Positions 3,242 through 61,495 of a stretch of DNA of 64,000 nt are shown piece by piece. The stretch comes from an uncultured virus (IMG/VR IMGVR_UViG_3300029305_011619) (lineage: Duplodnaviria > Heunggongvirae > Uroviricota > Caudoviricetes), in IMG/VR virus record IMGVR_UViG_3300029305_011619. One strand, given 5' to 3'. The first letter of the stretch is position 1. The number at the start of each line of letters is the position of its first letter. The position numbers were made by a program, and so were the translations under genes. The notes beneath the pieces are model-generated. The model was not told where the DNA came from. It saw nothing but the letters and a program-made list of their open reading frames with translations, and made no database searches.

Positions 3242-5587
3242 TTAAACCTCCTGCTTTGTTAATATTAAATTTGTGTATGTTACCGTATCGTTTAATACGG
3301 TATCACCATTGTCACCCTGATATGCTACAGGGTTTAATACAGTCCAGTAAGCATTCTCAGGAACAGTAAATTCTATGGATAAGTTTGTTCCGCTACTACT
3401 ATTAACAGAACTAATATAAGTACCATCTTCATTTAAGAAGTTTACGTAAAGACGCCCTTTCCCGGAACCTTCACTTGTTGTACTTGCCTCACCAGAGAAC
3501 ACATAGGTTGCACCAACCTCTAATGGCATCGGTAAACCAATACCGACATTTTTATACGCCGTAAATGTCACATTATTACCTTCAACCACTACATCAGATG
3601 CATAAGATGGATGTATAGCGCCAGTCCCAGCAAAACCAACATAGTAAAACTTCCTGCTTAAATCCTTTTGGTCTCCGGCTCCGATACTAGAAGAGTAAAC
3701 TTTCTGTGTTCTACTACCAATATCCCAAGTAGGAACGTAGTTATCTATTGCAACAGCAGTAATTATAATATTGCCAGTTACATTTTCAATAGTAATCATT
3801 CCGTTGTTATATACAGAAGTTCCATCTGAGTTAATGTTATTTGTAATATCTATACCACCCATTGTAATTGATACTTCATCGGATAGAATGCACTCCGAAT
3901 CGGCTACAATAGTTGTAGTGTATACGGAACCTTCTATAACGGTATTATTTGTTGTACTGCTTGAGCAATTTGTTAAATTGTATACTACGTCATGCTCTTT
4001 CTTAGATACATCAATAGAAATCGATCTGTCAATATCTGCACCATAGCCAATAGAGTGGACTACTTGATTGTCCAAATCAATAAAATAGAAAGTAGCAGAA
4101 GTATCTTTTTCGGTACCTGATATTTTTACTATCTTATTTTTCTCCTCGGTAGAAATGCTGTAATATCCTTTATCTTCATATCTTGCGGCTGTTGGATCCT
4201 GAGTGGAACTTCCTGTAGATATTCTAACAATATCTAACTCCGTTTTATCATCGATAAATTTAAGTTTGCCGTAAATATTGTTATGTAAATGCCCGTGGAT
4301 ATTTACTATTTTTGGAGAATTTATTCCTGAATAACTCTTAGTTAAATAGCCGTTAAAATAAGTCTTGTATGATTGCACTGCGCTACTTTCATTTTGTGCA
4401 CTGCAATGCGCTTCGTCAACTTCGATGGAGACATCTCCTCCGTTTTTTTGGTTGTATGCGCTTAAAATCGCCTTTAAGTCATCGCCTTTATTATAATCTC
4501 CTTCTGCAAAATCGAGTGGTATATGGGATAATACAATAATAAGCCAATCCTCAAAGTTGCTTTTACTAGATAAATCAAGAGAACGCATAAACCAATCTTT
4601 TTGTTCATACGACATACCATTTCCGCCTTGCGCATCCCAGTAGTCGCAGGTATTTAAACAGATTACGCGGACTTTTTTATCTTCATAATCTTTATAACCA
4701 TACCCCCTGATTTTCGTTAAACCAGAATCATCAAAGCTCGTTTTTCCTTCTTGGTGGTTATACTTTCCAATAAAGTTGTATAATTCTTGTGTGCTATTGC
4801 CTTTATCATGATTACCAATCAAGTTATAGGAACTAACAGACGTTAGAGCATCTTTAGAGATAGACTCCATATAAACCATACTATCATACGCTGATTGCAC
4901 CAAATTTCCATTAAGATCATATAATCCTGAGTTTGCGATGTTATCACCAAGATTTGTAATAAAATCGCACTGAGCGGATAATCCGACAGATTTTAATGCG
5001 AATAAAGCATGGTTTGCGCTTGTTTTTACAGATTCATTATTGATATCAATATGGGTATCTGCAATAGCACCAAATAAGATATGATTCGGATATTTAGATT
5101 TAAGTTCTAATAATCTCTGAGTTACTCTTCCTGATTCAACATAATGATAATTCGGAATCGTTATAGTTGGAGTATTAGGATTTACAATAGGTTCATCTGT
5201 TTCGTCATCATTACTTCCGCCACCGCCATATGATGGGTTTACCGATGGATTTATCCAAATTAAAACATTAGGGTCTGTAGGCTCCGTGTTTCCTATGTAC
5301 ACCTCTTTAATTCCATTCAACACCATACGAAGCAACTCGTCTGTAAAATCATTTGTAGATAATCCCTTCCCGGCTATTTTATCTACTTTTTGATTCCATC
5401 TCGCTTTATCACTTTGTGTTACGTGTATATTTTTATCATTAATATGATTATCGATTTTTTCTTTTGTTTTATAGTAATCACCGGAAGGTGTACTATCTTT
5501 TTTGTTTAATATGTTTTGTAATTCTTCACCTGTGTTGCCAATTACAATATATTCTTTTGGAGCGTTATCCATATATTTCACCTCCAC
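3242..5587 (-). CDS. Tail-associated protein with a calcineurin-like metallophosphoesterase domain
   Basis: Motifs ADTH, GDN, GNHD, SH, HGHLH; N-terminal KVDKIAGKGLSTNDFT fibre motif; C-terminal beta-rich domains. Confidence 0.7.
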   Translation of the reverse strand: MEVKYMDNAPKEYIVIGNTGEELQNILNKKDSTPSGDYYKTKEKIDNHINDKNIHVTQSDKARWNQKVDKIAGKGLSTNDFTDELLRMVLNGIKEVYIGNTEPTDPNVLIWINPSVNPSYGGGGSNDDETDEPIVNPNTPTITIPNYHYVESGRVTQRLLELKSKYPNHILFGAIADTHIDINNESVKTSANHALFALKSVGLSAQCDFITNLGDNIANSGLYDLNGNLVQSAYDSMVYMESISKDALTSVSSYNLIGNHDKGNSTQELYNFIGKYNHQEGKTSFDDSGLTKIRGYGYKDYEDKKVRVICLNTCDYWDAQGGNGMSYEQKDWFMRSLDLSSKSNFEDWLIIVLSHIPLDFAEGDYNKGDDLKAILSAYNQKNGGDVSIEVDEAHCSAQNESSAVQSYKTYFNGYLTKSYSGINSPKIVNIHGHLHNNIYGKLKFIDDKTELDIVRISTGSSTQDPTAARYEDKGYYSISTEEKNKIVKISGTEKDTSATFYFIDLDNQVVHSIGYGADIDRSISIDVSKKEHDVVYNLTNCSSSTTNNTVIEGSVYTTTIVADSECILSDEVSITMGGIDITNNINSDGTSVYNNGMITIENVTGNIIITAVAIDNYVPTWDIGSRTQKVYSSSIGAGDQKDLSRKFYYVGFAGTGAIHPSYASDVVVEGNNVTFTAYKNVGIGLPMPLEVGATYVFSGEASTTSEGSGKGRLYVNFLNEDGTYISSVNSSSGTNLSIEFTVPENAYWTVLNPVAYQGDNGDTVLNDTVTYTNLILTKQEV

Positions 5588-8770: not shown

Positions 8771-9642
8771 TATACCACCGCCTCACCCATCAAATATACT
8801 CTAATGTTGTTAGCGTCTTCAAGCTGCACATAGTCAAAGCTTAATTCAATCACTTCTCCTAGAACTTCATCCATAATATTGAATTTACTGTTGTAAATAT
8901 CAACGGGATATATCATCCCTTTTGTAGTCTTCAATAGTTTAAGTTCTCCATTGTTTACAAACTCCTCCCACTTGTCCATAAGGGCAGGGGAGTCATAGTA
9001 TTCACAGTCTGACTGTGATATATTTCCCAAAAGACAGCTAAGGCTTCCTTCTTTATATCTCCGTTTTCCATACATAACCTTGGGGAATCTTGAGTATGTC
9101 TCGTGTAATTGTCTGTTCACGGTATCTCCGATTGTTCCACTTTCGATATTTAATTGGAAATTCCAGATATTATTTTTATCAACGGTGTATTCGTTTTTAG
9201 ATTGCTTCTTTAAACCGATAACACTCCACCCATTCCAAGAAGGTGTGATATAATCGGATTTGATCGGTGAAGACAATATTGTTTTATCGTTTTCTCCTGT
9301 TATTTTAGGATAAATATAGAAAGATAGTTTTGTATTTGCTTTGGTGTTAAAATCATATAATGTTTTAATGTTTTTGCTGGTGTCAGATATGTAATAAAGA
9401 ACACCGTTTTCTTCTCTAAACACTTTATATCCGGTAATTAAACTATTGATATCGAAATTAGAAGCGGACAATAAATTTTCTATGTCAGGATACGAGGCGA
9501 GCATGACTGTGTTTAAACTCCAGTCAGGCTTTTTTAGTTTACCCTCTATAATAATATTTTCCGGGACATTCATATCAGTAGTTTTCTCAGCCATTACATA
9601 AGCATTGGTATGAGAACCTGTAATTCTAATGGAATTATACAT
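8770..9642 (-). CDS. Distal tail / baseplate-type structural protein
   Basis: Likely true start is ATG 9642 after AGAGGTG; the longer ORF call overlaps the upstream gene. Confidence 0.5.
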   Translation of the reverse strand: MYNSIRITGSHTNAYVMAEKTTDMNVPENIIIEGKLKKPDWSLNTVMLASYPDIENLLSASNFDINSLITGYKVFREENGVLYYISDTSKNIKTLYDFNTKANTKLSFYIYPKITGENDKTILSSPIKSDYITPSWNGWSVIGLKKQSKNEYTVDKNNIWNFQLNIESGTIGDTVNRQLHETYSRFPKVMYGKRRYKEGSLSCLLGNISQSDCEYYDSPALMDKWEEFVNNGELKLLKTTKGMIYPVDIYNSKFNIMDEVLGEVIELSFDYVQLEDANNIRVYLMGEAVV

Positions 9643-11422
9643 CACTATCACCTCTATTCTTTTTGTATTCTTTAAATGTAACCATTTTGCTATAGTCTTG
9701 TTCGTGTAAATTAATTTTAATAAGCCACCAATACATAGTTCCAACATCGTTGTAGTGCCATACGTAATCATCAGATGAATTCCATTCAGCATCTTCACTG
9801 TCATCCCACAGATAGAGGGTATGTGAGGGGGTAGTGTTGCCTTGGAGAACACCCACCTGAACAACAGTTCCTTCAGTATAAGGGTTATATGTATATTTCA
9901 TTCCGTTTACAGTCCACCAGAACTCTTTTGAGTTATATCCTACCTCTATCTTATCAGTTCCATTGCTATCAAAAACTTCAAGTATTTTACCGTCGTAATT
10001 ATAAATGTTTGTAACTAATGTGGAAACAACTGTTGGCTCTTCAAGATTTAACGGATGTGTTCCGTCAATGCTATCCCATAATACCGCCTGTTCGTCTTTT
10101 AATACAAGGAAATGATTGTCTGCGTCGTATGATTCCTTGCTTATTTCAAACGTGCTTTCGCCTAATATAGAACGAGAGGCACCCCAATCTATTTTAACAG
10201 CAGAATCATATTCAAGTTTAGTATTTGGAGCAAGCAGTGCATTGGCATCATTATATTGAACAGTAATATTAATTTTTTCCTCCAAAACTGTTCCGTCGTT
10301 ATTCTCCACAATAATCTCTAAAACATATTCCTGTGGAAGTAATGAGTCATACTGATACTCAATTTTGCTGTTATACACATTCCCTGTGCTATTTACTACA
10401 CGACCATTGCTTTTTAAAGTGATATTCCAGTATTTAATATTGGAACCTTGTTGTTTATACGAAGCTTTAATATCGATAGAAGAATGTGTGTTTGTAATCA
10501 TATTATTTGTAATTTCTTCGTTATTGTTATATACAGTCAGTTCGGGAGTAGTTCTTGCTTGAAAGAAGAAACCAACATCACATTCAACATAATTCGATAA
10601 CACAACATATTCTGTCCCTGCTGGGATTGCAGTAGAAATGGTTCCATGAAGTTTGGCAGTGGAATATAAACTTGGACTAATGTTTTGAACGTATGAGACT
10701 CCAGATACAGTATTTACGATTGAGCTATCAGATAAATCTACTTGGCCGAAATACGTCATATTGCTATTAAGTGTGCATGTTTTAGTTGTTTTATTATACG
10801 AATTTCCAAAACCACCTACAATCACATAGGTACCATATTTTAATCCGTCGGTTCCGTCAGCATTTGGGTCAACATAAATAACTCCAGATTCACTGCTTGA
10901 TTTATTAGCATAAATCTTAGGATACTGTAATACACAAGAGTTAACTGTATAATCTTGAGTTCCAATTCGTAAAACCATTCCTTCACGAACAGTATCTTCA
11001 ATATGAGGTCTAATTTTAATTCCGGAGTCACCAGAGGTTTCTTTGTCCACATGTTCATAAACCCTACCTCTAACAACCTCAATATCGTGCGTATTTTGCC
11101 ATAATTTAGCCTTCCATACATAATCTAAACCGTTTGTTAAAATAGTAATTTTATTTCCATTTTCGTCGGTAATGAAGTCGCCGTTTTCATCGGTTTTATA
11201 AACGGGAATAATCACCTCGATAAAACTATCATCTCCGTCATTCCCATATACACAGCAATCTTCCTTATTCCCTTCATACACTAACTCATTAGTAGAGGCG
11301 TTGTATATAAGAATCTGATATGCTATTACACAATCTCCGTTAACTTTGAATCTAAATGTGTTTTCTTTATTTGCGTCAATGGTGCTTAAATAAGGGCTTG
11401 GGAAACTTGGTTGATATAACAC
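9635..11422 (-). CDS. Minor tail structural protein (Ig/FN3-like beta domains)
   Basis: 595-aa beta-rich ORF in the tail module; GTG start with RBS. Confidence 0.5.
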   Translation of the reverse strand: MLYQPSFPSPYLSTIDANKENTFRFKVNGDCVIAYQILIYNASTNELVYEGNKEDCCVYGNDGDDSFIEVIIPVYKTDENGDFITDENGNKITILTNGLDYVWKAKLWQNTHDIEVVRGRVYEHVDKETSGDSGIKIRPHIEDTVREGMVLRIGTQDYTVNSCVLQYPKIYANKSSSESGVIYVDPNADGTDGLKYGTYVIVGGFGNSYNKTTKTCTLNSNMTYFGQVDLSDSSIVNTVSGVSYVQNISPSLYSTAKLHGTISTAIPAGTEYVVLSNYVECDVGFFFQARTTPELTVYNNNEEITNNMITNTHSSIDIKASYKQQGSNIKYWNITLKSNGRVVNSTGNVYNSKIEYQYDSLLPQEYVLEIIVENNDGTVLEEKINITVQYNDANALLAPNTKLEYDSAVKIDWGASRSILGESTFEISKESYDADNHFLVLKDEQAVLWDSIDGTHPLNLEEPTVVSTLVTNIYNYDGKILEVFDSNGTDKIEVGYNSKEFWWTVNGMKYTYNPYTEGTVVQVGVLQGNTTPSHTLYLWDDSEDAEWNSSDDYVWHYNDVGTMYWWLIKINLHEQDYSKMVTFKEYKKNRGDSDV

Positions 11423-43050: not shown

Positions 43051-43074
43051 TTTATACCCCCTTTTTTGTGTTGA

Positions 43075-43267
43075 AAAAATATTTTTAGAACCAAACCGGT
43101 TCTAAAATTGAAAAAATACACCCCTAGAACCCTTGAAAACACTGGATTCTTAAAAGTGCTCCCCTAAAGGAAAAATACACTTTTCGTTATTCTTTCAGAT
43201 TACATATTTAGCTACATGCAGTAGTGACAAGTGATAGTTTTATTTATTCGTAGAGGATAGTGTTATT
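43075..43267 (-). repeat. Dispersed inverted repeat, copy A (partner 59334-59502)
   Basis: Reverse complement aligns to 59334-59502 in two blocks, including AGAATcCAGTGTTTTCAAGGG and the palindrome TTTTAGAACC-n-GGTTCTAAAA. Confidence 0.85.
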
Positions 43268-45954: not shown

Positions 45955-46116
45955 GCCCAGGGACGGACGGCGACCGCCTTTACTATATAGACGGACGGAC
46001 AGACCGAACCGAACCCAGGGCAACACACAACACAGCCCAGGGACGGACGGCGACCGCCTTTACTATATAGACGGACGGACAGACTGAACCGAACCCAGGG
46101 CAACACACAACACAGC
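45955..46116. repeat. Tandem direct repeat, 2 x 80 bp, one mismatch
   Basis: Unit GCCCAGGGACGGACGGCGACCGCCTTTACTATATAGACGGACGGACAGAC(C/T)GAACCGAACCCAGGGCAACACACAACACA at 45955 and 46035. Confidence 0.95.
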
Positions 46117-46199: not shown

Positions 46200-46740
46200 A
46201 TTACTGCACTAACCTACATAGCAGATGGATATTATGGGCGAAAAACGCCATAGCGTGAGCCACCACGCAAAAGGATGGCTGGGCTGGTATCAATCTTTCA
46301 AAGAGTATGCCCGTACCGCACGATGGAAGTAATCGTGTGATTGAGCCGCCGTCTGGATGGCGGTATTAGGGGTAGTGTCCGACATAAACACGAATTGCAC
46401 TAGGTCGCACTTAGACCTAGGGAGCATGCACCAATGCATGCAGGTAACTCTGTCCTAAAATCCAGAGTCGTCGCTTAAGCTATGAGGAATTAAGCCCATA
46501 GCGTGTCAGATAGTGAAAATGGCAAGAGGTATCAGCAAAACCTAAACTCGGCTTGTGAAACTGCTGGTAGGTATGAAATAACTTTTGATGATGTATGTGA
46601 TAGGCAACTGATAAAAATTCGTATAAATACCAGATGGTTCAAGTAACGCAGATGGTATGAGTTTGTATCTTTCGATAATAATTCCCAAGGGAAATATTCT
46701 CAGCTGAACGCATGCGTGTGATGGGTTATGTAATACTTAT
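46200..46740 (+). ncRNA. Candidate large structured non-coding RNA, family unassigned
   Basis: ORF-free and GC-enriched with many consecutive hairpins (GCGTG/CACGC, GCCGCCGTC/GATGGCGGT, CTAGGTC/GACCTAG, GCATGCA/TGCATGC, ACTCTG/CAGAGT); boundaries approximate. Confidence 0.5.
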
Positions 46741-46856
46741 TGAAATAAAATGAATTGAATAAATTTGTATATCAAACACACCCTTAATGCAAGTTTTGGG
46801 TGTGTTTTCATATGGATTTATCCAGAAAATAAATCAAATGAAAAGGAGAGTTTGCA

Positions 46857-53846: not shown

Positions 53847-54518
53847 ATGAATATTGCAAAATCATACGATTTCTTTCAGCCTGAAAAGTTAGACGGAAGA
53901 ATTCATATTCTTGGATGTGGAGCCATTGGTTCAACGGTAGCAGAAAATCTAGTGAGATTCGGTATTACCAAAATCACGCTGTACGATTTTGATATAGTAG
54001 AATCACACAATATTGCAAATCAGATGTTCCGTCAGCAAGATATCGGAAAATATAAAGTTGATGCACTTGCGGACATCCTCTACGAAATTAACCCTGAAAT
54101 CAAGAACGACATCAAACTTGTTAAAGAGGGCTATACCGGACAGAAGCTTTCAGGATATGTCTTCTTATGTGTTGATAGTATTGATATTAGAAGAGAAGTG
54201 GCTGAGAAATACCAGAGCAACCAATTTATTAAAGCAATGTTCGATTTTCGTATGAGATTGACAGACGCACAGCATTATGCAGCGGACTGGAAAAACAAGA
54301 AAATGATTGAGGATTTTCTTGCATCTATGCAATTCTCCCACGAAGAAGCTATGGCTGAAACCCCGGTATCAGCTTGTAATATGACGTTATCGGTAGTTCC
54401 AACTGTTCGTCATATCGTCGCAGAGGGTGTAGCAAACTTTATAAATTTTGTTAAAACAAGAGACCTTAAAAAATTAATTCTTGTAGACACATTCACTCAC
54501 ACCGTAGATGCGTTTTAA
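53847..54518 (+). CDS. ThiF/E1-like adenylating enzyme
   Basis: ILGCGAIGS, YDFDIVESHNIANQ, GKYKVDAL, CVDSIDIR; candidate catalytic Cys in PVSAC. Confidence 0.9.
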   Translation: MNIAKSYDFFQPEKLDGRIHILGCGAIGSTVAENLVRFGITKITLYDFDIVESHNIANQMFRQQDIGKYKVDALADILYEINPEIKNDIKLVKEGYTGQKLSGYVFLCVDSIDIRREVAEKYQSNQFIKAMFDFRMRLTDAQHYAADWKNKKMIEDFLASMQFSHEEAMAETPVSACNMTLSVVPTVRHIVAEGVANFINFVKTRDLKKLILVDTFTHTVDAF

Positions 54519-54533
54519 TAATTAATAAAAATA

Positions 54534-54840
54534 TTTTTTCACTTAGCAATGTATTATTTAGCGAAAGCTAAATACTTCATGTTGTAAGCTGAAGTAAAAT
54601 TTTGATTAGGAAATAGGATGGAAGGAAGGATACGGATCCAGGAAGCAGGCCGAGCGTTAATGATCCAAGGAACGACATCTACCTGTCGAGTACCTCCAAA
54701 TAATTGACAACTACTGTACCGATAGCACCGCTTCCCGTCACAATCCGCCGGTTGCCCAGTCACAGCCCTGCAATGTTACAACTTCGCCTCCTATACCTCC
54801 GGAAGACAATACAAATTTAGATTGCAAGTAATCGAAAGGA
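54534..54840 (+). ncRNA. Retron-like msr-msd ncRNA, unit 1 (upstream of RT)
   Basis: ACTTAGCAAT|G(54551) pairs with ATTGCAAGT (54821-54829); SL1 TATTTAGC-gaaa-GCTAAATA; SL2 CTTC-ATGTTGTAAGCT-GAAG; long imperfect msd-like arm. Confidence 0.8.
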
Positions 54841-54848
54841 GTTATATT

Positions 54849-55988
54849 ATGCCTTTTATAACTATTAAACAAAGCCCTATATACTACCAAATGTCCCTTG
54901 ATGATATTTTAGATGGAACTTTCGATATATCAAAAATGGTAGTTCAAAATATTACAAATACAAGAACAACATTTCGTGAATATTTCAAATCAAGTTTTTT
55001 AGAAAAGTTTGATTTTGGTGCAATGATAAATTCGTTGGAAATGTTTAATCAAAGAAATTCAGAGTTATTTTCCGTTGATAGAAAGACTCTTTACCATACG
55101 TTTAGCATCCCAAAAAAATCTGGCGGACTAAGAAAGATTAGTGCGCCGAACAAACCTCTTATGGATAATTTAAGATACCTTAAGGAATTATTGGAGTCTA
55201 TGATGCCTGCCACACATCATACATCTGCTTTTGCTTATGTGAATGGAAGATGTACCGTGGATGCAGTAAAGCGTCACCAGCAGAACGGGAGCAAATGGTT
55301 TGCAAAATTGGATTTCTCAGACTTTTTTGGTAGCACCACAGAAGAATTTGTACTGAAAATGTTTAGTATGATTTTCCCCTTTAGCGAGATTGTAAAGACA
55401 GAATCAGGATACAATGCATTAAAGACAGCATTAAGCTTATGCTTCTTAGATGGCGGGCTCCCTCAAGGAACACCAATCTCTCCGTTTATTACCAATGTTA
55501 TGATGATTCCTATTGATCACCATTTATACAACCAGTTACGTAAGTCTGACGATAAATTGATATACACAAGATACGCTGATGATATTCTTGTGTCCTCAAG
55601 AAAAACATTTGATCATAAAAAAATTTCGAGTATTATTGTTGATACATTGCGTAAATTTGACGCCCCATTTTCTATCAATCATAAAAAAACCAGATACGGC
55701 TCTTCTTCTGGAAGAAATTGGAATCTTGGATTGATGTTAAATAAAGATAATAATATCACTATCGGTTATAGAAACAAGAAATTTTTCAAAGCTATGTGTA
55801 ATAACTATTTGCAAGATAAAGCAAATAATATAAATTGGGATTTACATGATGTGCAAGTTTTTTCTGGTAAAATCTCATACTATCGTAGCATAGAGCCAGA
55901 ATACATCGACTATTTAATTGGTCATTATAATCATAAGTTTAATGCAGATATTCTTAGTCTTATTCATAACGATATTGTAAATTTGTAA
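54849..55988 (+). CDS. Retron-type reverse transcriptase
   Basis: IPKKSGGLRKISAP, region-X-like DAVKRH, LDFSDFF, LPQGTPISP, YTRYADD; NLG at the usual VTG position. AAAGGAG RBS before ATG 54849. No maturase, endonuclease or Cas1 domain. Confidence 0.9.
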   Translation: MPFITIKQSPIYYQMSLDDILDGTFDISKMVVQNITNTRTTFREYFKSSFLEKFDFGAMINSLEMFNQRNSELFSVDRKTLYHTFSIPKKSGGLRKISAPNKPLMDNLRYLKELLESMMPATHHTSAFAYVNGRCTVDAVKRHQQNGSKWFAKLDFSDFFGSTTEEFVLKMFSMIFPFSEIVKTESGYNALKTALSLCFLDGGLPQGTPISPFITNVMMIPIDHHLYNQLRKSDDKLIYTRYADDILVSSRKTFDHKKISSIIVDTLRKFDAPFSINHKKTRYGSSSGRNWNLGLMLNKDNNITIGYRNKKFFKAMCNNYLQDKANNINWDLHDVQVFSGKISYYRSIEPEYIDYLIGHYNHKFNADILSLIHNDIVNL

Positions 55989-56285: not shown

Positions 56286-56361
56286 TGGGATATCGCCAAG
56301 TCGGTAAGGCACAGGACTTTGACTCCTGCATTCGCTGGTTCGAGTCCAGCTATCCCAGCCA
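56286..56361 (+). tRNA. tRNA-Gln(TTG)
   Basis: Cloverleaf TGGGATA/TATCCCA, anticodon arm CAGGA-ctTTGac-TCCTG, encoded CCA. Confidence 0.95.
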
Positions 56362-56615
56362 ATAATATACAATGTAGATTCCCTATAATACATAAGTAAA
56401 ATAAAAGGGGCTTCGTGTTACAAGCCGAAGTATAAAAATGTTAAGAGTCTCCGCCTTTGCCAGACGCTTTCAGGCTCCCGAGCCTGAAAAGCTCTTCGCC
56501 AAGGCTTCCTGCTTAACGCATTTTTAATATAAATTAAATTTGCTAATCCATGCGGCGGAATCCGCCGCTTGTATAGCAATTTCTAATTTAGTATTAATAA
56601 CAGATTGTATATTAT
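56362..56615 (+). ncRNA. Retron-like msr-msd ncRNA, unit 3 (between tRNA-Gln and tRNA-Leu)
   Basis: Perfect 12-bp ATAATATACAAT|G(56374) / ATTGTATATTAT; SL2 CTTC-GTGTTACAAGCC-GAAG; two msd-like hairpins. Confidence 0.85.
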
Positions 56616-56620
56616 ATTAT

Positions 56621-56703
<83 letters not shown>

Positions 56704-56804
56704 CAAATTCAGTAGTGAGTACAAAGCCTTACTGATTATGCCACAACGTACACCCTTTGCTTAAATCGTCTGTACAACGATGAGCTTAGGAGTGGCAGAG
56801 ATTA

Positions 56805-56878
56805 GGAATGGTGGTGTAAAGGTAGCATACCCTCGACATATAGGGAGGTTTCGGGTTCAAGTCCCAACCATCCGACCA
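56805..56878 (+). tRNA. Degenerate tRNA-like gene (anticodon unresolved)
   Basis: D arm, GGGTTCAAGTCCC T arm and ACCA end are present, but the acceptor stem has mismatches and the anticodon loop is 8 nt. Confidence 0.5.
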
Positions 56879-57050
56879 AAAAGAAAATCTCTTAAAAGTA
56901 TGAAGTATGAAAAAACGGATTAAATAATAGGATGACGACGTGGTTTTGGTTCCACCGAACAAGATAAAAAACCAAGCGAGTAACGATACTGCAGGTCAAA
57001 CCTCGCATCCGTTCCTATAGGTGAAAGTCCTATGGCTGAATTTCTAATAC

Positions 57051-57127
57051 GGGCATTTAGCTGAGTTGGTTACAGCACCCGGCTCATAACCGGTAGATCC
57101 AAGGTTCGAGTCCTTGAATGCCCACCA
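57051..57127 (+). tRNA. tRNA with CAT anticodon (Ile2-like, or Met)
   Basis: GGGCATT/AATGCCC, CCGG-ctCATaa-CCGG, CCA. Confidence 0.9.
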
Positions 57128-57287
57128 CTATACGACAATACACTGTCGTGTAAACACCTCTCTTTAGGAGCACCGGTTATTTGTAGTTAGTGTATCAATG
57201 CTACAAGAAAGAAACTCCAGGGATAGTGCCGCCCTATGTGTGAGCTCGCACACAGCTTTTGCTGGGAAATTCAAGAGAGGTCAATAT

Positions 57288-57530
57288 GCGCCACTAACTC
57301 AGTTGGTTAGAGTACCTGGATTTATTAAGGGGGTGTACCCAAGTGGTGATGGGGCTGGTCTTATACACCAGTTGCCGACTGTTCGATTCAGTCCACCCCT
57401 ACCAAATTATTTTTAGGAGAATGCCTATGAAATACGAATAAGACATAGAGAAGAGTTCTTAATAGACAATGTGTTGTCTAAAAATACTAAATCCAGTTAG
57501 TGCGAGGTTCGAGTCCTCGGTGGCGTACCA
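57288..57530 (+). tRNA. Split/interrupted tRNA: 5' half 57288-57324, 3' half 57488-57530, with an insert of about 160 nt in the anticodon arm
   Basis: Acceptor GCGCCAC/GTGGCGT-ACCA, D arm ACTC/GAGT, T arm CGAGG-TTCGAGT-CCTCG, extended stem CTGGATTTA/TAAATCCAG. Confidence 0.75.
57329..57404 (+). tRNA. tRNA-Ile(TAT), nested inside the split tRNA
   Basis: 76-nt cloverleaf GGGGGTG/CACCCCT, CTGGT-ctTATac-ACCAG, GACTG-TTCGATT-CAGTC, CCA. Confidence 0.85.
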
Positions 57531-57752
57531 GTTGGAGAGATGGTAGCATCCCTGACTTCACTCCGTAGGGTGACTCCTACATCAAAGATTATCGGATGCG
57601 CATTTTTGGTTTAGAATAAGACTTTTTACGTTGTTAGGGAAGAAAGGAAATTCAGATTGCAATCGAGTTGGTAAGCTTCACGTTTTAGGTGAAGATTCCA
57701 CTCAGGTTCCGATACGCCTCTTCACAATGCGTACCAGATCGGAGCCGCCTCT

Positions 57753-57829
57753 CGAGGTGTAGAACAACTTGGTAGTTCGCTACATTTGGGATGTAGAAGT
57801 CGCAGGTTCGAATCCTGTCACCTCGACCA
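57753..57829 (+). tRNA. tRNA-Pro(TGG)
   Basis: CGAGGTG/CACCTCG, CTACA-ttTGGga-TGTAG, CCA. Confidence 0.93.
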
Positions 57830-57973
57830 TTGGGTTTGACTGTACCCTGCCACACAGTTGGGTTTCCTCAGCCATATAAGAGAGGTGCGGCAGCGCGCAG
57901 GAGGTTATGCGAGCTAAGCGTCGGTGCTACAGCGATGTGATACCAAGTACTGGCAATACACTGTAGTAAATAC

Positions 57974-58060
57974 GGAGAGATGTCCGAGTGGTTTAAGGAG
58001 CTAGTCTTGAAAACTAGTGACTCGAAAGAGCCCAGAGTTCGAATCTCTGTCTCTCCGCCA
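57974..58060 (+). tRNA. tRNA-Ser(TGA)
   Basis: GGAGAGA/TCTCTCC, CTAGT-ctTGAaa-ACTAG, long variable arm, GCCA end. Confidence 0.95.
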
Positions 58061-58120
58061 TTGCCGGCTTGAGACTCCTCGAGGAGCATCGGCTTCATGA
58101 ACCGATATGCCGGCCACCAT

Positions 58121-58196
58121 GCTATCGTAGCTCAATCGGTAGAGCGACGTATTTGTAATGCGTATGTAGTGAGTTCGAATCTCACCGATAGCTCCA
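58121..58196 (+). tRNA. tRNA-Thr(TGT)
   Basis: GCTATCG/CGATAGC, ACGTA-ttTGTaa-TGCGT, CCA. Confidence 0.93.
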
Positions 58197-59335: not shown

Positions 59336-59502
59336 TAACACTATCATCTACGGTACAAATAGACAACAATTCATCTTGTTATTACTACATGTAAAAAAAT
59401 GGTAAATCTCTCTTTGGGAAGCATTTTGAAGAATTCAGTGTTTTCAAGGGCTCTAAGGGGGTAAATTTTTAATTTTAGTACCGGGTTGGTACTAAAAATA
59501 TT
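59334..59502 (+). repeat. Dispersed inverted repeat, copy B (partner 43075-43267)
   Basis: AATAACACTATCATCTACG...CTTGTTATTACTACATGTA...AGAATTCAGTGTTTTCAAGGG...TTTTAGTACC-n-GGTACTAAAA. Confidence 0.85.
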
Positions 59503-59585
59503 ATTTTATTAATGAAATTTGAAGGTTTTGTGATGGAAAAATTTTTACCAACCAGAATTAAAATATCTTTAAAAGGAAGTAGATT

Positions 59586-60946: not shown

Positions 60947-61495
60947 ATGAAAAAAGTTTTAGTAGTTGTTGATATGCAACACGATTTTATCGATGGGGCA
61001 TTAGGAAGTGAAGACGCTCGTCAGATTGTAGATAATGTTGCAGAAAAAATCAAAGGATTTGACGGAGATATCGTATTCACAATGGATACACATTCAGAAA
61101 AATACTTAACTACACAAGAAGGATATAAACTTCCTGTTCCGCATTGCATTAAAGATACTGACGGATGGGCTTTAAATGATGTTGTTTGTGTAGCAACCAA
61201 ACAAAAGAGAGTTGGCTATAAAGTATTTATGAAAGATACATTTGGTTCTATGGAGCTTGCAAAGTTTTTAGCCGACCATCAGTATTGCTATGTTGAATTT
61301 GTAGGTTTATGCACAGACATTTGTGTTATCTCAAACGCTATGTTAGCCAAAGCCTCTGTTCCGGAAGCACAAATTGTAGTAGATGCTTCTTGTTGTGCCG
61401 GAGTGACTCAAGAGAGCCATAAAAATGCATTAGCCGCTATGAGTCAATGTCAAATTGAGATTGTTAATTATAATATCTTAAATAAAGATAATTAA
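60947..61495 (+). CDS. pncA: Nicotinamidase / isochorismatase-family cysteine hydrolase
   Basis: VVVDMQHDF, DTH, HC...GW, K, VGLCTDICV catalytic motifs. Confidence 0.85.
   Translation: MKKVLVVVDMQHDFIDGALGSEDARQIVDNVAEKIKGFDGDIVFTMDTHSEKYLTTQEGYKLPVPHCIKDTDGWALNDVVCVATKQKRVGYKVFMKDTFGSMELAKFLADHQYCYVEFVGLCTDICVISNAMLAKASVPEAQIVVDASCCAGVTQESHKNALAAMSQCQIEIVNYNILNKDN

Follow-up and report, generated by a model that had tools for sequence, protein, structure and literature searches.

The stretches at positions 57288-57324 and 57489-57530 are the two halves of one canonical cloverleaf tRNA gene, which is split by a 164-bp insert that itself carries a complete tRNA-Ile(UAU). The locus belongs to a gut tailed phage and lies in a 64-kb stretch of DNA (36% G+C) that was analyzed as a whole and is called the window below. 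An earlier note, made from the letters of the DNA, had described a complete tRNA nested within the anticodon arm of another tRNA gene; the sequence at these positions matches that description, and the nesting was borne out by ARAGORN after masking of the inner tRNA and by a shuffled control. The parts of the locus are as follows.

57288..57324, + strand: 5' half of the outer tRNA, with the acceptor 5' strand, D arm, anticodon-stem 5' strand and loop TTTA
57325..57328, + strand: linker TTAA, the start of the insert (sequence; ARAGORN i(37,164))
57329..57404, + strand: complete inner tRNA-Ile(UAU) with encoded CCA (ARAGORN; Rfam RF00005, 64.4 bits)
57405..57488, + strand: 84-nt 3' part of the insert, with a hairpin AGACAA/TTGTCT, AGGAG and a four-codon mini-ORF
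57489..57530, + strand: 3' half of the outer tRNA, with loop AAA, anticodon-stem 3' strand, 6-nt variable loop, T arm, acceptor 3' strand, A73 and CCA (sequence, pair table, masked ARAGORN)

Anatomy of the nested tRNA genes

Both genes are intact. In the outer gene, the pair table shows the pairing of the halves in the acceptor, D and T arms that had been reported earlier, and all 21 stem pairs are formed (acceptor stem, 7/7, including G1:U72; D stem, 4/4; anticodon stem, 5/5; T stem, 5/5). The conserved bases A73, CCA, G18G19 in the D loop and TTCGA in the T loop are also present. What is missing is a contiguous 7-nt anticodon loop, which is split by the 164 bp. The 5' half was delimited from the sequence, the pair table, ARAGORN after inner-tRNA masking and a junction scan.

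Run on the window with introns allowed (-i0,400), ARAGORN did not report the outer gene, and none of its seven calls carried an intron; likewise, Rfam gave no match on the outer halves at E≤10. When the inner tRNA was masked with N, a shuffle or poly-A, ARAGORN called 57288-57530 as one tRNA with a 164-nt intron, i(37,164), for all three fillers. Standard tools therefore miss the outer gene for the sole reason that it overlaps a better-scoring inner gene. In the junction scan, performed in silico, a tRNA was called at 108 of 238 artificial junctions, and all 108 calls start at 57288. As a control for chance, 30 shuffled copies of the 64-kb window (1.92 Mb) gave no ARAGORN call. The same mask-and-rescan procedure over 76 sequences (716 kb) yielded nine calls, five of them copies of the nested locus; the remaining four are odd but real-looking tRNA genes of relatives.

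The insert (57325-57488) consists of 4 nt, the tRNA-Ile(UAU) and 84 nt, and ends in ATACT; the linker 5' of the inner tRNA is 4 nt long because G57329 is the first base of that tRNA. The completeness of the inner tRNA, also claimed earlier, was confirmed by both ARAGORN and Rfam, and only 88 nt of the insert lie outside it. As seen in the 3' part, the AGGAG and the mini-ORF pointed out by the earlier note are present in the sequence, whereas nothing supports a function for them, and the proposed closure of this domain by TATTTTTAG/CTAAAAATA is absent from both minimum-energy folds. The fold of 57405-57487 (83 nt, the last base being omitted) has ordinary stability, with 16 of 200 shuffles as good, and at a z score of -1.60 the 3' domain was rejected as a folded unit. 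This part matches no Rfam family and has no BLAST relative in phage records or in the fetched loci. The insert as a whole has no relatives in 50,697 phage records, IMG/VR or 75 related loci; BLAST against the phage records returned only six weak matches, all of them to the T arms of tRNA-Leu. No other copy of the cassette was found in the same collections, and the insert has neither terminal repeats nor a target duplication.

Folding of the 243-nt locus gives both cloverleaf frames, with an energy of -73.9 kcal/mol (z -3.04), a result equaled by none of 200 shuffles. The 9-bp extended anticodon stem noticed earlier, CTGGATTTA/TAAATCCAG, does form. Five of its pairs are the anticodon stem itself, one is an A-U pair contributed by the last base of the insert, and the other three (32-38, 33-37 and 34-36) are available in any UUUAAAA loop opened in the middle. 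Since eight of the nine pairs need no insert and would occur in any such tRNA split mid-loop, the helix is no evidence of an evolved intron helix and no sign of design.

The insert shows no recognizable self-splicing features. A group I intron was rejected given the lack of an RF00028 match in Rfam (E≤10), the 88 nt available outside the inner tRNA and the lack of a G before the 3' junction, and a group II intron was rejected in the absence of any Rfam match at E≤10; the earlier view that the insert is neither kind thus held. Archaeal introns of the bulge-helix-bulge (BHB) type are marked by two 3-nt bulges with a 4-bp helix between them at the junctions. Here both junctions flank an unbroken, continuous 9-bp helix and have no 3-nt bulges, and the insert is therefore not a BHB intron. 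No HDV-like element was matched by Rfam in the window (E≤10). The HDV-like theta ribozymes form a double pseudoknot starting at the 3' end of a phage tRNA, and the tRNAs associated with them in PMC10879173 mostly have no CCA, whereas all tRNAs here encode it. The suggestion of a tmRNA-like scaffold found no support, no tmRNA being detected in the window by either ARAGORN or Rfam. The seven nucleotides next to the two stem arms differ (TTTATTA versus TACTAAA); integrase-type att cores were therefore rejected, and the insert is not a simple integrase product. The spacers, having no second copy in the window, were rejected as a template/variable repeat (TR/VR) pair of a diversity-generating retroelement (DGR). 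Regarding proteins, no RNA ligase or RtcB family member was found among the 59 ORFs of the window or the 19 ORFs of the next 11 kb, PF09414 had no match in the two IMG/VR pieces described below, and no splicing endonuclease was seen among the scanned ORFs (59 plus 19).

Identity of the outer tRNA and its setting in the phage

Only two junctions yield a canonical 7-nt loop, namely 57324|57489 (UUUAAAA, anticodon UAA) and 57325|57490 (UUUAUAA, anticodon UAU), the latter loop keeping A37 and A38. In the junction scan, UUA and CUA anticodons arise only in other stem registers. Among the anticodons left open by the earlier note (CTA, TTA, TAA or TAT), TAA is favored, TAT gives the second canonical loop, and CTA and TTA fit poorly. 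From its likeness to uninterrupted tRNAs in two related loci, L023 and L090, we consider that the outer tRNA most likely has a UAA anticodon, with the junction at 57324|57489.

Uninterrupted counterparts in related phages, which the earlier note had suggested looking for, were found in these two loci. L023, whose reverse transcriptase is 51% identical to that of the window, has an uninterrupted 77-nt tRNA located 470 nt 3' of the reverse transcriptase gene; its 15-nt anticodon arm is identical to that of the outer gene, and the two also share the 2 bases between the D and anticodon stems, A73 and CCA. The second, in L090, came from an IMG/VR pattern scan and is likewise an uninterrupted phage tRNA of 77 nt with loop UUUAAAA, the same geometry, A73 and CCA. 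The outer gene agrees with L023 at 59/79 positions and with L090 at 56/80, and these two agree with each other at 57/80; compensatory changes are seen among the three in the acceptor, anticodon and T stems. The lowest likeness is to the inner tRNA-Ile (47/81 positions), whose anticodon stem shares 4/5 pairs with the outer one.

Phage records annotate short tRNAs like the outer gene as tRNA-Leu (74 and 77 nt; the kind spans 74-77 nt). Without its insert, the outer gene has the length class, the short variable loop and the A73 of two such genes, those of Synechococcus phage Sf-FR1 and Pseudomonas phage Amme-3; the UAA anticodon is common to the Sf-FR1 tRNA, whereas that of Amme-3 is UAG. Nevertheless, the short phage tRNA-Leu genes have a D loop of the AATNGGCAGAG type and the outer gene has the general AGTTGGTTAGAG type, and therefore leucine is only a candidate identity for the outer tRNA.

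A role as a stop suppressor was also considered and had no support, since such an anticodon arises only in other stem registers and the standard code suits the genome well. Coding is dense in that code, with the ends of greedily chosen ORFs being TAA in 41/68, TAG in 16/68 and TGA in 11/68. Because TAA is the main stop and genetic-code tests gave no sign of TAA, TAG or TGA recoding within the window, a UUA or CUA suppressor fits poorly. Neighboring genes in the same frame each have their own start codon in the window, and the large terminase (TerL) has no internal stop.

The window has Pfam matches to a large terminase, a 2,623-amino-acid tape-measure protein, two tyrosine recombinases, a reverse transcriptase, a GIY-YIG endonuclease, HU and RusA. 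Two IMG/VR pieces of the same assembly, 100% identical, cover it and extend it: G001 (window 1-45881) and G002 (window 28733-64000 plus 11 kb). CheckV rates each of them at 39% of a genome, which gives an estimated genome size of about 118 kb; about 75 kb of this was examined. The tRNA array lies on the + strand at 56286-58196, 3' of the reverse transcriptase (54822-55988), and its seven called tRNAs are, in order, Gln UUG, Leu UAG, Met CAU, Ile UAU, Pro UGG, Ser UGA and Thr UGU, separated by spacers of 60-348 nt and each with an encoded CCA. All seven, except the ATG reader, decode A-ending codons, and therefore a UAA tRNA would fit the set. UUA accounts for 571/17,364 codons and for 43% of Leu codons, being the commonest Leu codon of the phage, and ARAGORN called no second UAA-anticodon tRNA in the window.

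Several further elements were observed around the array. The reverse transcriptase (RVT_1, E 1e-24) adjoins a ThiF-family gene (53847-54518), both directly 5' of the tRNAs; no TR/VR pair for it was found within the window, and a DGR role is only putative. Inverted repeats of 94 bp (43074-43167 and 59413-59506; 84% identical, ungapped, with mismatches that are not adenine-specific) enclose a 16-kb segment with an integrase, the reverse transcriptase and the tRNA array. An 81-bp tandem duplication (45955-46116, 98.8% identical) sits beside an ORF-free stretch of 655 bp (46202-46856). Within the array, positions 56790-56880, in the spacer between tRNA-Leu and tRNA-Met, contain an orphan T-loop-like motif, GTTCAAGTC (56855-56863), with GACCA after it, and at 57708-57744, in the spacer 5' of tRNA-Pro, there is a sub-threshold match to the abiF RNA (30.7 bits versus 37). 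Genes related to NAD or ADP-ribose (isochorismatase-family, NADAR, Macro and NAD synthase) follow 3' of the tRNAs and are candidates for acting against defense systems that deplete NAD or add ADP-ribose:

60947-61495 of the window: NAD/ADP-ribose-related group
4144-4587, 9021-9560 and 9541-10287 of locus L080: NAD/ADP-ribose-related group

Assembly, relatives and other tRNA-like RNAs

To judge whether the locus was assembled correctly, contigs of public sequencing runs are informative. A 332-nt contig of run X1, which may be the source sample, agrees with 57269-57600 at every position, across both junctions; two stretches, 57056-57322 and 57375-57822, are matched with 0 differences by contigs of run X3. 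In addition, the window has no repeat able to mislead assembly at the junctions. The assembly chimera that the earlier note had to allow for has left no sign, and we hold it to be very improbable, even though a single strain is known and the IMG/VR contig, being 100% identical to the window over 13,164 nt, is not independent support. No contig skipping the insert, as an empty-site allele would, was found in four runs. No RNA data set containing the locus was listed among 20 sequencing runs. Runs X1, X3 and X6 contain a diverged variant that matches only 57125-57254 and 57527-57612 (15 and 12 differences).

Close relatives were not found in IMG/VR, metagenome contigs or GTDB genomes. Exact-pattern scans of IMG/VR with either outer half, with the inner tRNA or with the left flank returned only the window's own contig; a scan with a conserved-flank 24-mer returned that contig and the related genome G004 only, and a metagenome scan with a 22-mer of the left spacer had no match. 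BLAST of the outer halves gave generic tRNA matches only. Through the neighboring reverse transcriptase, relatives with at most 59% identity and other tRNA sets were reached (15 viral, 51 metagenome and 6 genome loci). Since tRNA sets differ widely between these relatives, tRNA genes are frequently gained and lost. Among the 106 tRNA calls in the relatives' loci, which were not de-duplicated, tRNA-Ile is absent (0/106) and tRNAs with a UAA anticodon are the commonest (17/106).

Unusual tRNA-like genes occur in this lineage. G004, the closest relative (TerL 63% identical), has three tRNA-like genes of 117-123 nt whose acceptor, D and T arms are perfect, while the anticodon arm is replaced by 54-58 nt with a common hairpin and a CAGCAAU-like motif. 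One of them has a weak match to YrlA, a Y RNA-like family (28.6 bits versus a cut-off of 69). These genes have no evident anticodon loop, which suggests, as judged from their sequences, that the lineage may have non-decoding tRNA-like RNAs. No sequence likeness was found between the insert of the nested locus and the G004 inserts. In locus L047 there is a tRNA gene whose acceptor, D and T arms are all perfect and whose loop reads CTTCAAA (opal-suppressor-like UCA anticodon); near position 37/38 it is interrupted by a GC-rich insert of about 120 nt that matches no Rfam family. The 10.9 kb of L047 read well in the standard code. Separately, a 108-nt tRNA-like gene with a GAA-anticodon-like loop and a long extra segment 3' of the anticodon arm was observed immediately 5' of tRNA-Gln in three loci. 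Their positions are as follows.

L088 (G004:C1:61600-62700), - strand, 251-373, 499-615, 712-830 and perhaps 388-481: G004 tRNA-like cluster
L047, 1088-1299: tRNA gene with an insert near position 37/38
L007, 9560-9668; L030, 8558-8665; L032, 8527-8634: 108-nt tRNA-like gene (Rfam tRNA, 34.4 bits)

The 160-nt spacer at 57128-57287, which separates tRNA-Met from the outer tRNA, is a structured and conserved RNA (50 predicted pairs, 5 compensatory) that is full-length 78-79% identical to the spacer between tRNA-Gln and tRNA-Pro in L007, L030 and L032; it has no Rfam match. The TerL genes of G003 and G005 (L085, L086 and L087) contain in-frame TAG codons (one and two), the G003 match being in pieces, which suggests TAG recoding and perhaps an intervening element, whereas the TerL of G004, as that of the window, has no in-frame TAG.

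Origin and processing of the locus, and comparison with known systems

To explain the locus, we give an even chance to a DNA-level insertion in which a cassette carrying tRNA-Ile entered a short tRNA(UAA) gene already present, with the outer gene probably silenced. A resident UAA tRNA gene of class I length would have been struck in the middle of its anticodon loop by the 164-bp cassette, which would have brought in a new, complete tRNA-Ile(UAU). The + strand transcript would span the whole array; from it, the inner tRNA-Ile, the reader of AUA, would be freed by RNase P and ordinary 3' end nucleases, and the outer halves would become its leader and trailer. These halves could remain paired via the acceptor stem and the 9-bp helix; they would probably stay unjoined, and outer decoding would be lost. 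We infer this DNA-level origin, processing route and loss of function from several observations. The outer halves make up a true tRNA gene, and the split falls exactly in its loop; L023 and L090 have uninterrupted tRNAs with an identical 15-nt anticodon arm; tRNA-Ile(UAU) is a newcomer to the lineage, in which UAA tRNAs are common and tRNA genes are often gained and lost. Moreover, no known splicing apparatus fits, no ligase or RtcB gene lies in the 75 kb seen, and the extended helix takes only one pair from the insert. However, the outer stems and conserved bases are all perfect, which a dead gene would lose with time, and the phage, with UUA as its top Leu codon, has no other UAA tRNA. Inserts in anticodon arms also recur in related phages (three in G004 and one in L047), and they therefore look more tolerated or processed than random damage. 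The cassette, in addition, has no terminal repeats, target duplication or copy elsewhere, and no empty-site allele appeared in the four runs.

The same intactness and codon demand would be expected if the outer gene had a true intron and a single precursor gave rise to two tRNAs, a reading that we find doubtful, albeit one to be taken seriously. RNase P together with 3' nucleases would excise the tRNA-Ile, the 5' exon would lose its 4-nt tail by trimming and the 3' exon its 84-nt leader, and an RNA ligase, of the host or encoded by the phage outside the part covered, would seal the tRNA(UAA); such a ligase gene could lie elsewhere in the phage, because only about 75 of about 118 kb were covered. 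The insert would then be a tRNA-shaped intron that needs protein enzymes, such as is suspected in the Lak megaphages. Cuts of the RNase P and RNase Z type leave 3'-OH and 5'-phosphate ends, which ATP-dependent RNA ligases can join. The precursor folds with both cloverleaf frames, and the recurrence of anticodon-arm inserts in related phages counts on this side as well. Against it, we know of no two-tRNA splicing pathway in bacteria, the covered 75 kb has no ligase gene, the 3' junction lies within a helix and has no obvious cleavage signal, and the 3' domain of the insert has no significant fold. The introns of Lak phage tRNAs, as reported by Devoto et al. (2019, PMC6784885), do hold a tRNA or mini-tRNA, whereas the build here departs from their rule, the inner tRNA abutting the 5' exon with 84 nt after it. 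The specific proposal that one gene yields two tRNAs, with excision of the tRNA-Ile by end-processing enzymes starting the splicing of the outer tRNA and an RNA ligase sealing it, we regard as unlikely.

It is also conceivable, though improbable, that the outer RNA has a role that needs no anticodon: its halves, still paired, would form a nicked tRNA-like particle that serves as a scaffold to stabilize or display the insert, or as a decoy or substrate for tRNA-binding enzymes. The 7-bp acceptor stem and the 9-bp helix could keep its halves together, and the three G004 genes with a replaced anticodon arm, one of them with its weak YrlA match, point in this direction. Nevertheless, the insert is unlike those of G004 in sequence, nothing ties the locus to an anticodon nuclease, for which a decoy role had been suggested earlier, or to Rsr/Ro, and the tmRNA form of the proposal fails. 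We find it still harder to credit an in-place replacement, in which an older tRNA-Ile(UAU), read across 57325|57490 with the loop UUUAUAA, was overwritten by a newer copy. The canonical 7-nt loop with A37 and A38 at that junction and the 4/5 pairs common to the two anticodon stems agree with it. The overall likeness does not, as the outer gene resembles the inner one least and the UAA tRNA of L023 most; full identity of the anticodon arm to L023 and L090 is obtained only with the UAA junction, and no tRNA-Ile occurs among the calls in the relatives' loci. Whichever of insertion and splicing holds, the locus offers a simple system in which an RNA-level route for maturing two tRNAs can be set against mobile DNA that carries a tRNA and targets anticodon loops, and either answer bears on the turnover of phage tRNA sets.

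In bacteria and their phages, tRNA genes are not known to have introns other than self-splicing ones. Group I introns do occur in the anticodon loops of bacterial tRNAs, for example in cyanobacterial tRNA-Leu(UAA), and the nested locus likewise has its insert in the anticodon loop of a tRNA that most likely has a UAA anticodon. The position differs, being 35|36 here and 34|35 in the group I case, and the insert has neither an RF00028 match nor a G before the 3' junction. With archaeal BHB-type and split tRNAs, as presented in PMC10714607, the locus shares an interruption in or near the anticodon loop and halves held by a helix; it differs in having no bulges, in belonging to a bacterial phage, in its encoded CCA and in the lack of a splicing endonuclease among the scanned ORFs.

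In the literature outside subscription journals, we found no description of a tRNA inside a phage tRNA intron other than that of Devoto et al. (2019, Nat Microbiol, PMC6784885), who noted "enigmatic" introns in the tRNAs of Lak megaphages, one of which "itself may encode a tRNA". As far as the account in that paper goes, these introns are the closest precedent of the nested locus, the principle being common to both and the build not. In both, an insert in the anticodon loop that belongs to no known intron class ("no hit in rfam" for Lak) carries a tRNA; the Lak inserts measure about 80-140 nt, the content being a tRNA in the Thr(UGU) case and otherwise a mini-tRNA that includes a T arm (PMC6784885). 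According to Table S6 of the same paper, the Lak introns begin with a hairpin, continue with an A/T-rich linker and close with a tRNA-like element that runs up to the 3' exon, whereas here a full, CCA-bearing tRNA comes first, 4 nt after the 5' exon, with 84 nt behind it. This inner tRNA is also canonical (64.4 bits), with an anticodon other than that predicted for the outer one. Lak genomes have alleles with and without the intron (PMC6784885), in contrast to the nested locus, for which the contigs of four runs contain no intron-less allele. The phage itself is not a Lak megaphage, given its size of about 118 kb (CheckV estimate), its integrases and its standard code. Overall, the nested locus is a cleaner case than those of Lak, with a complete and canonical inner tRNA, a flawless outer tRNA and anticodons that most likely differ, and it sits in a much smaller phage of temperate type. 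Should one gene indeed give two tRNAs, it would represent a class of protein-dependent, tRNA-shaped introns in bacterial viruses, which would explain the Lak introns as well.
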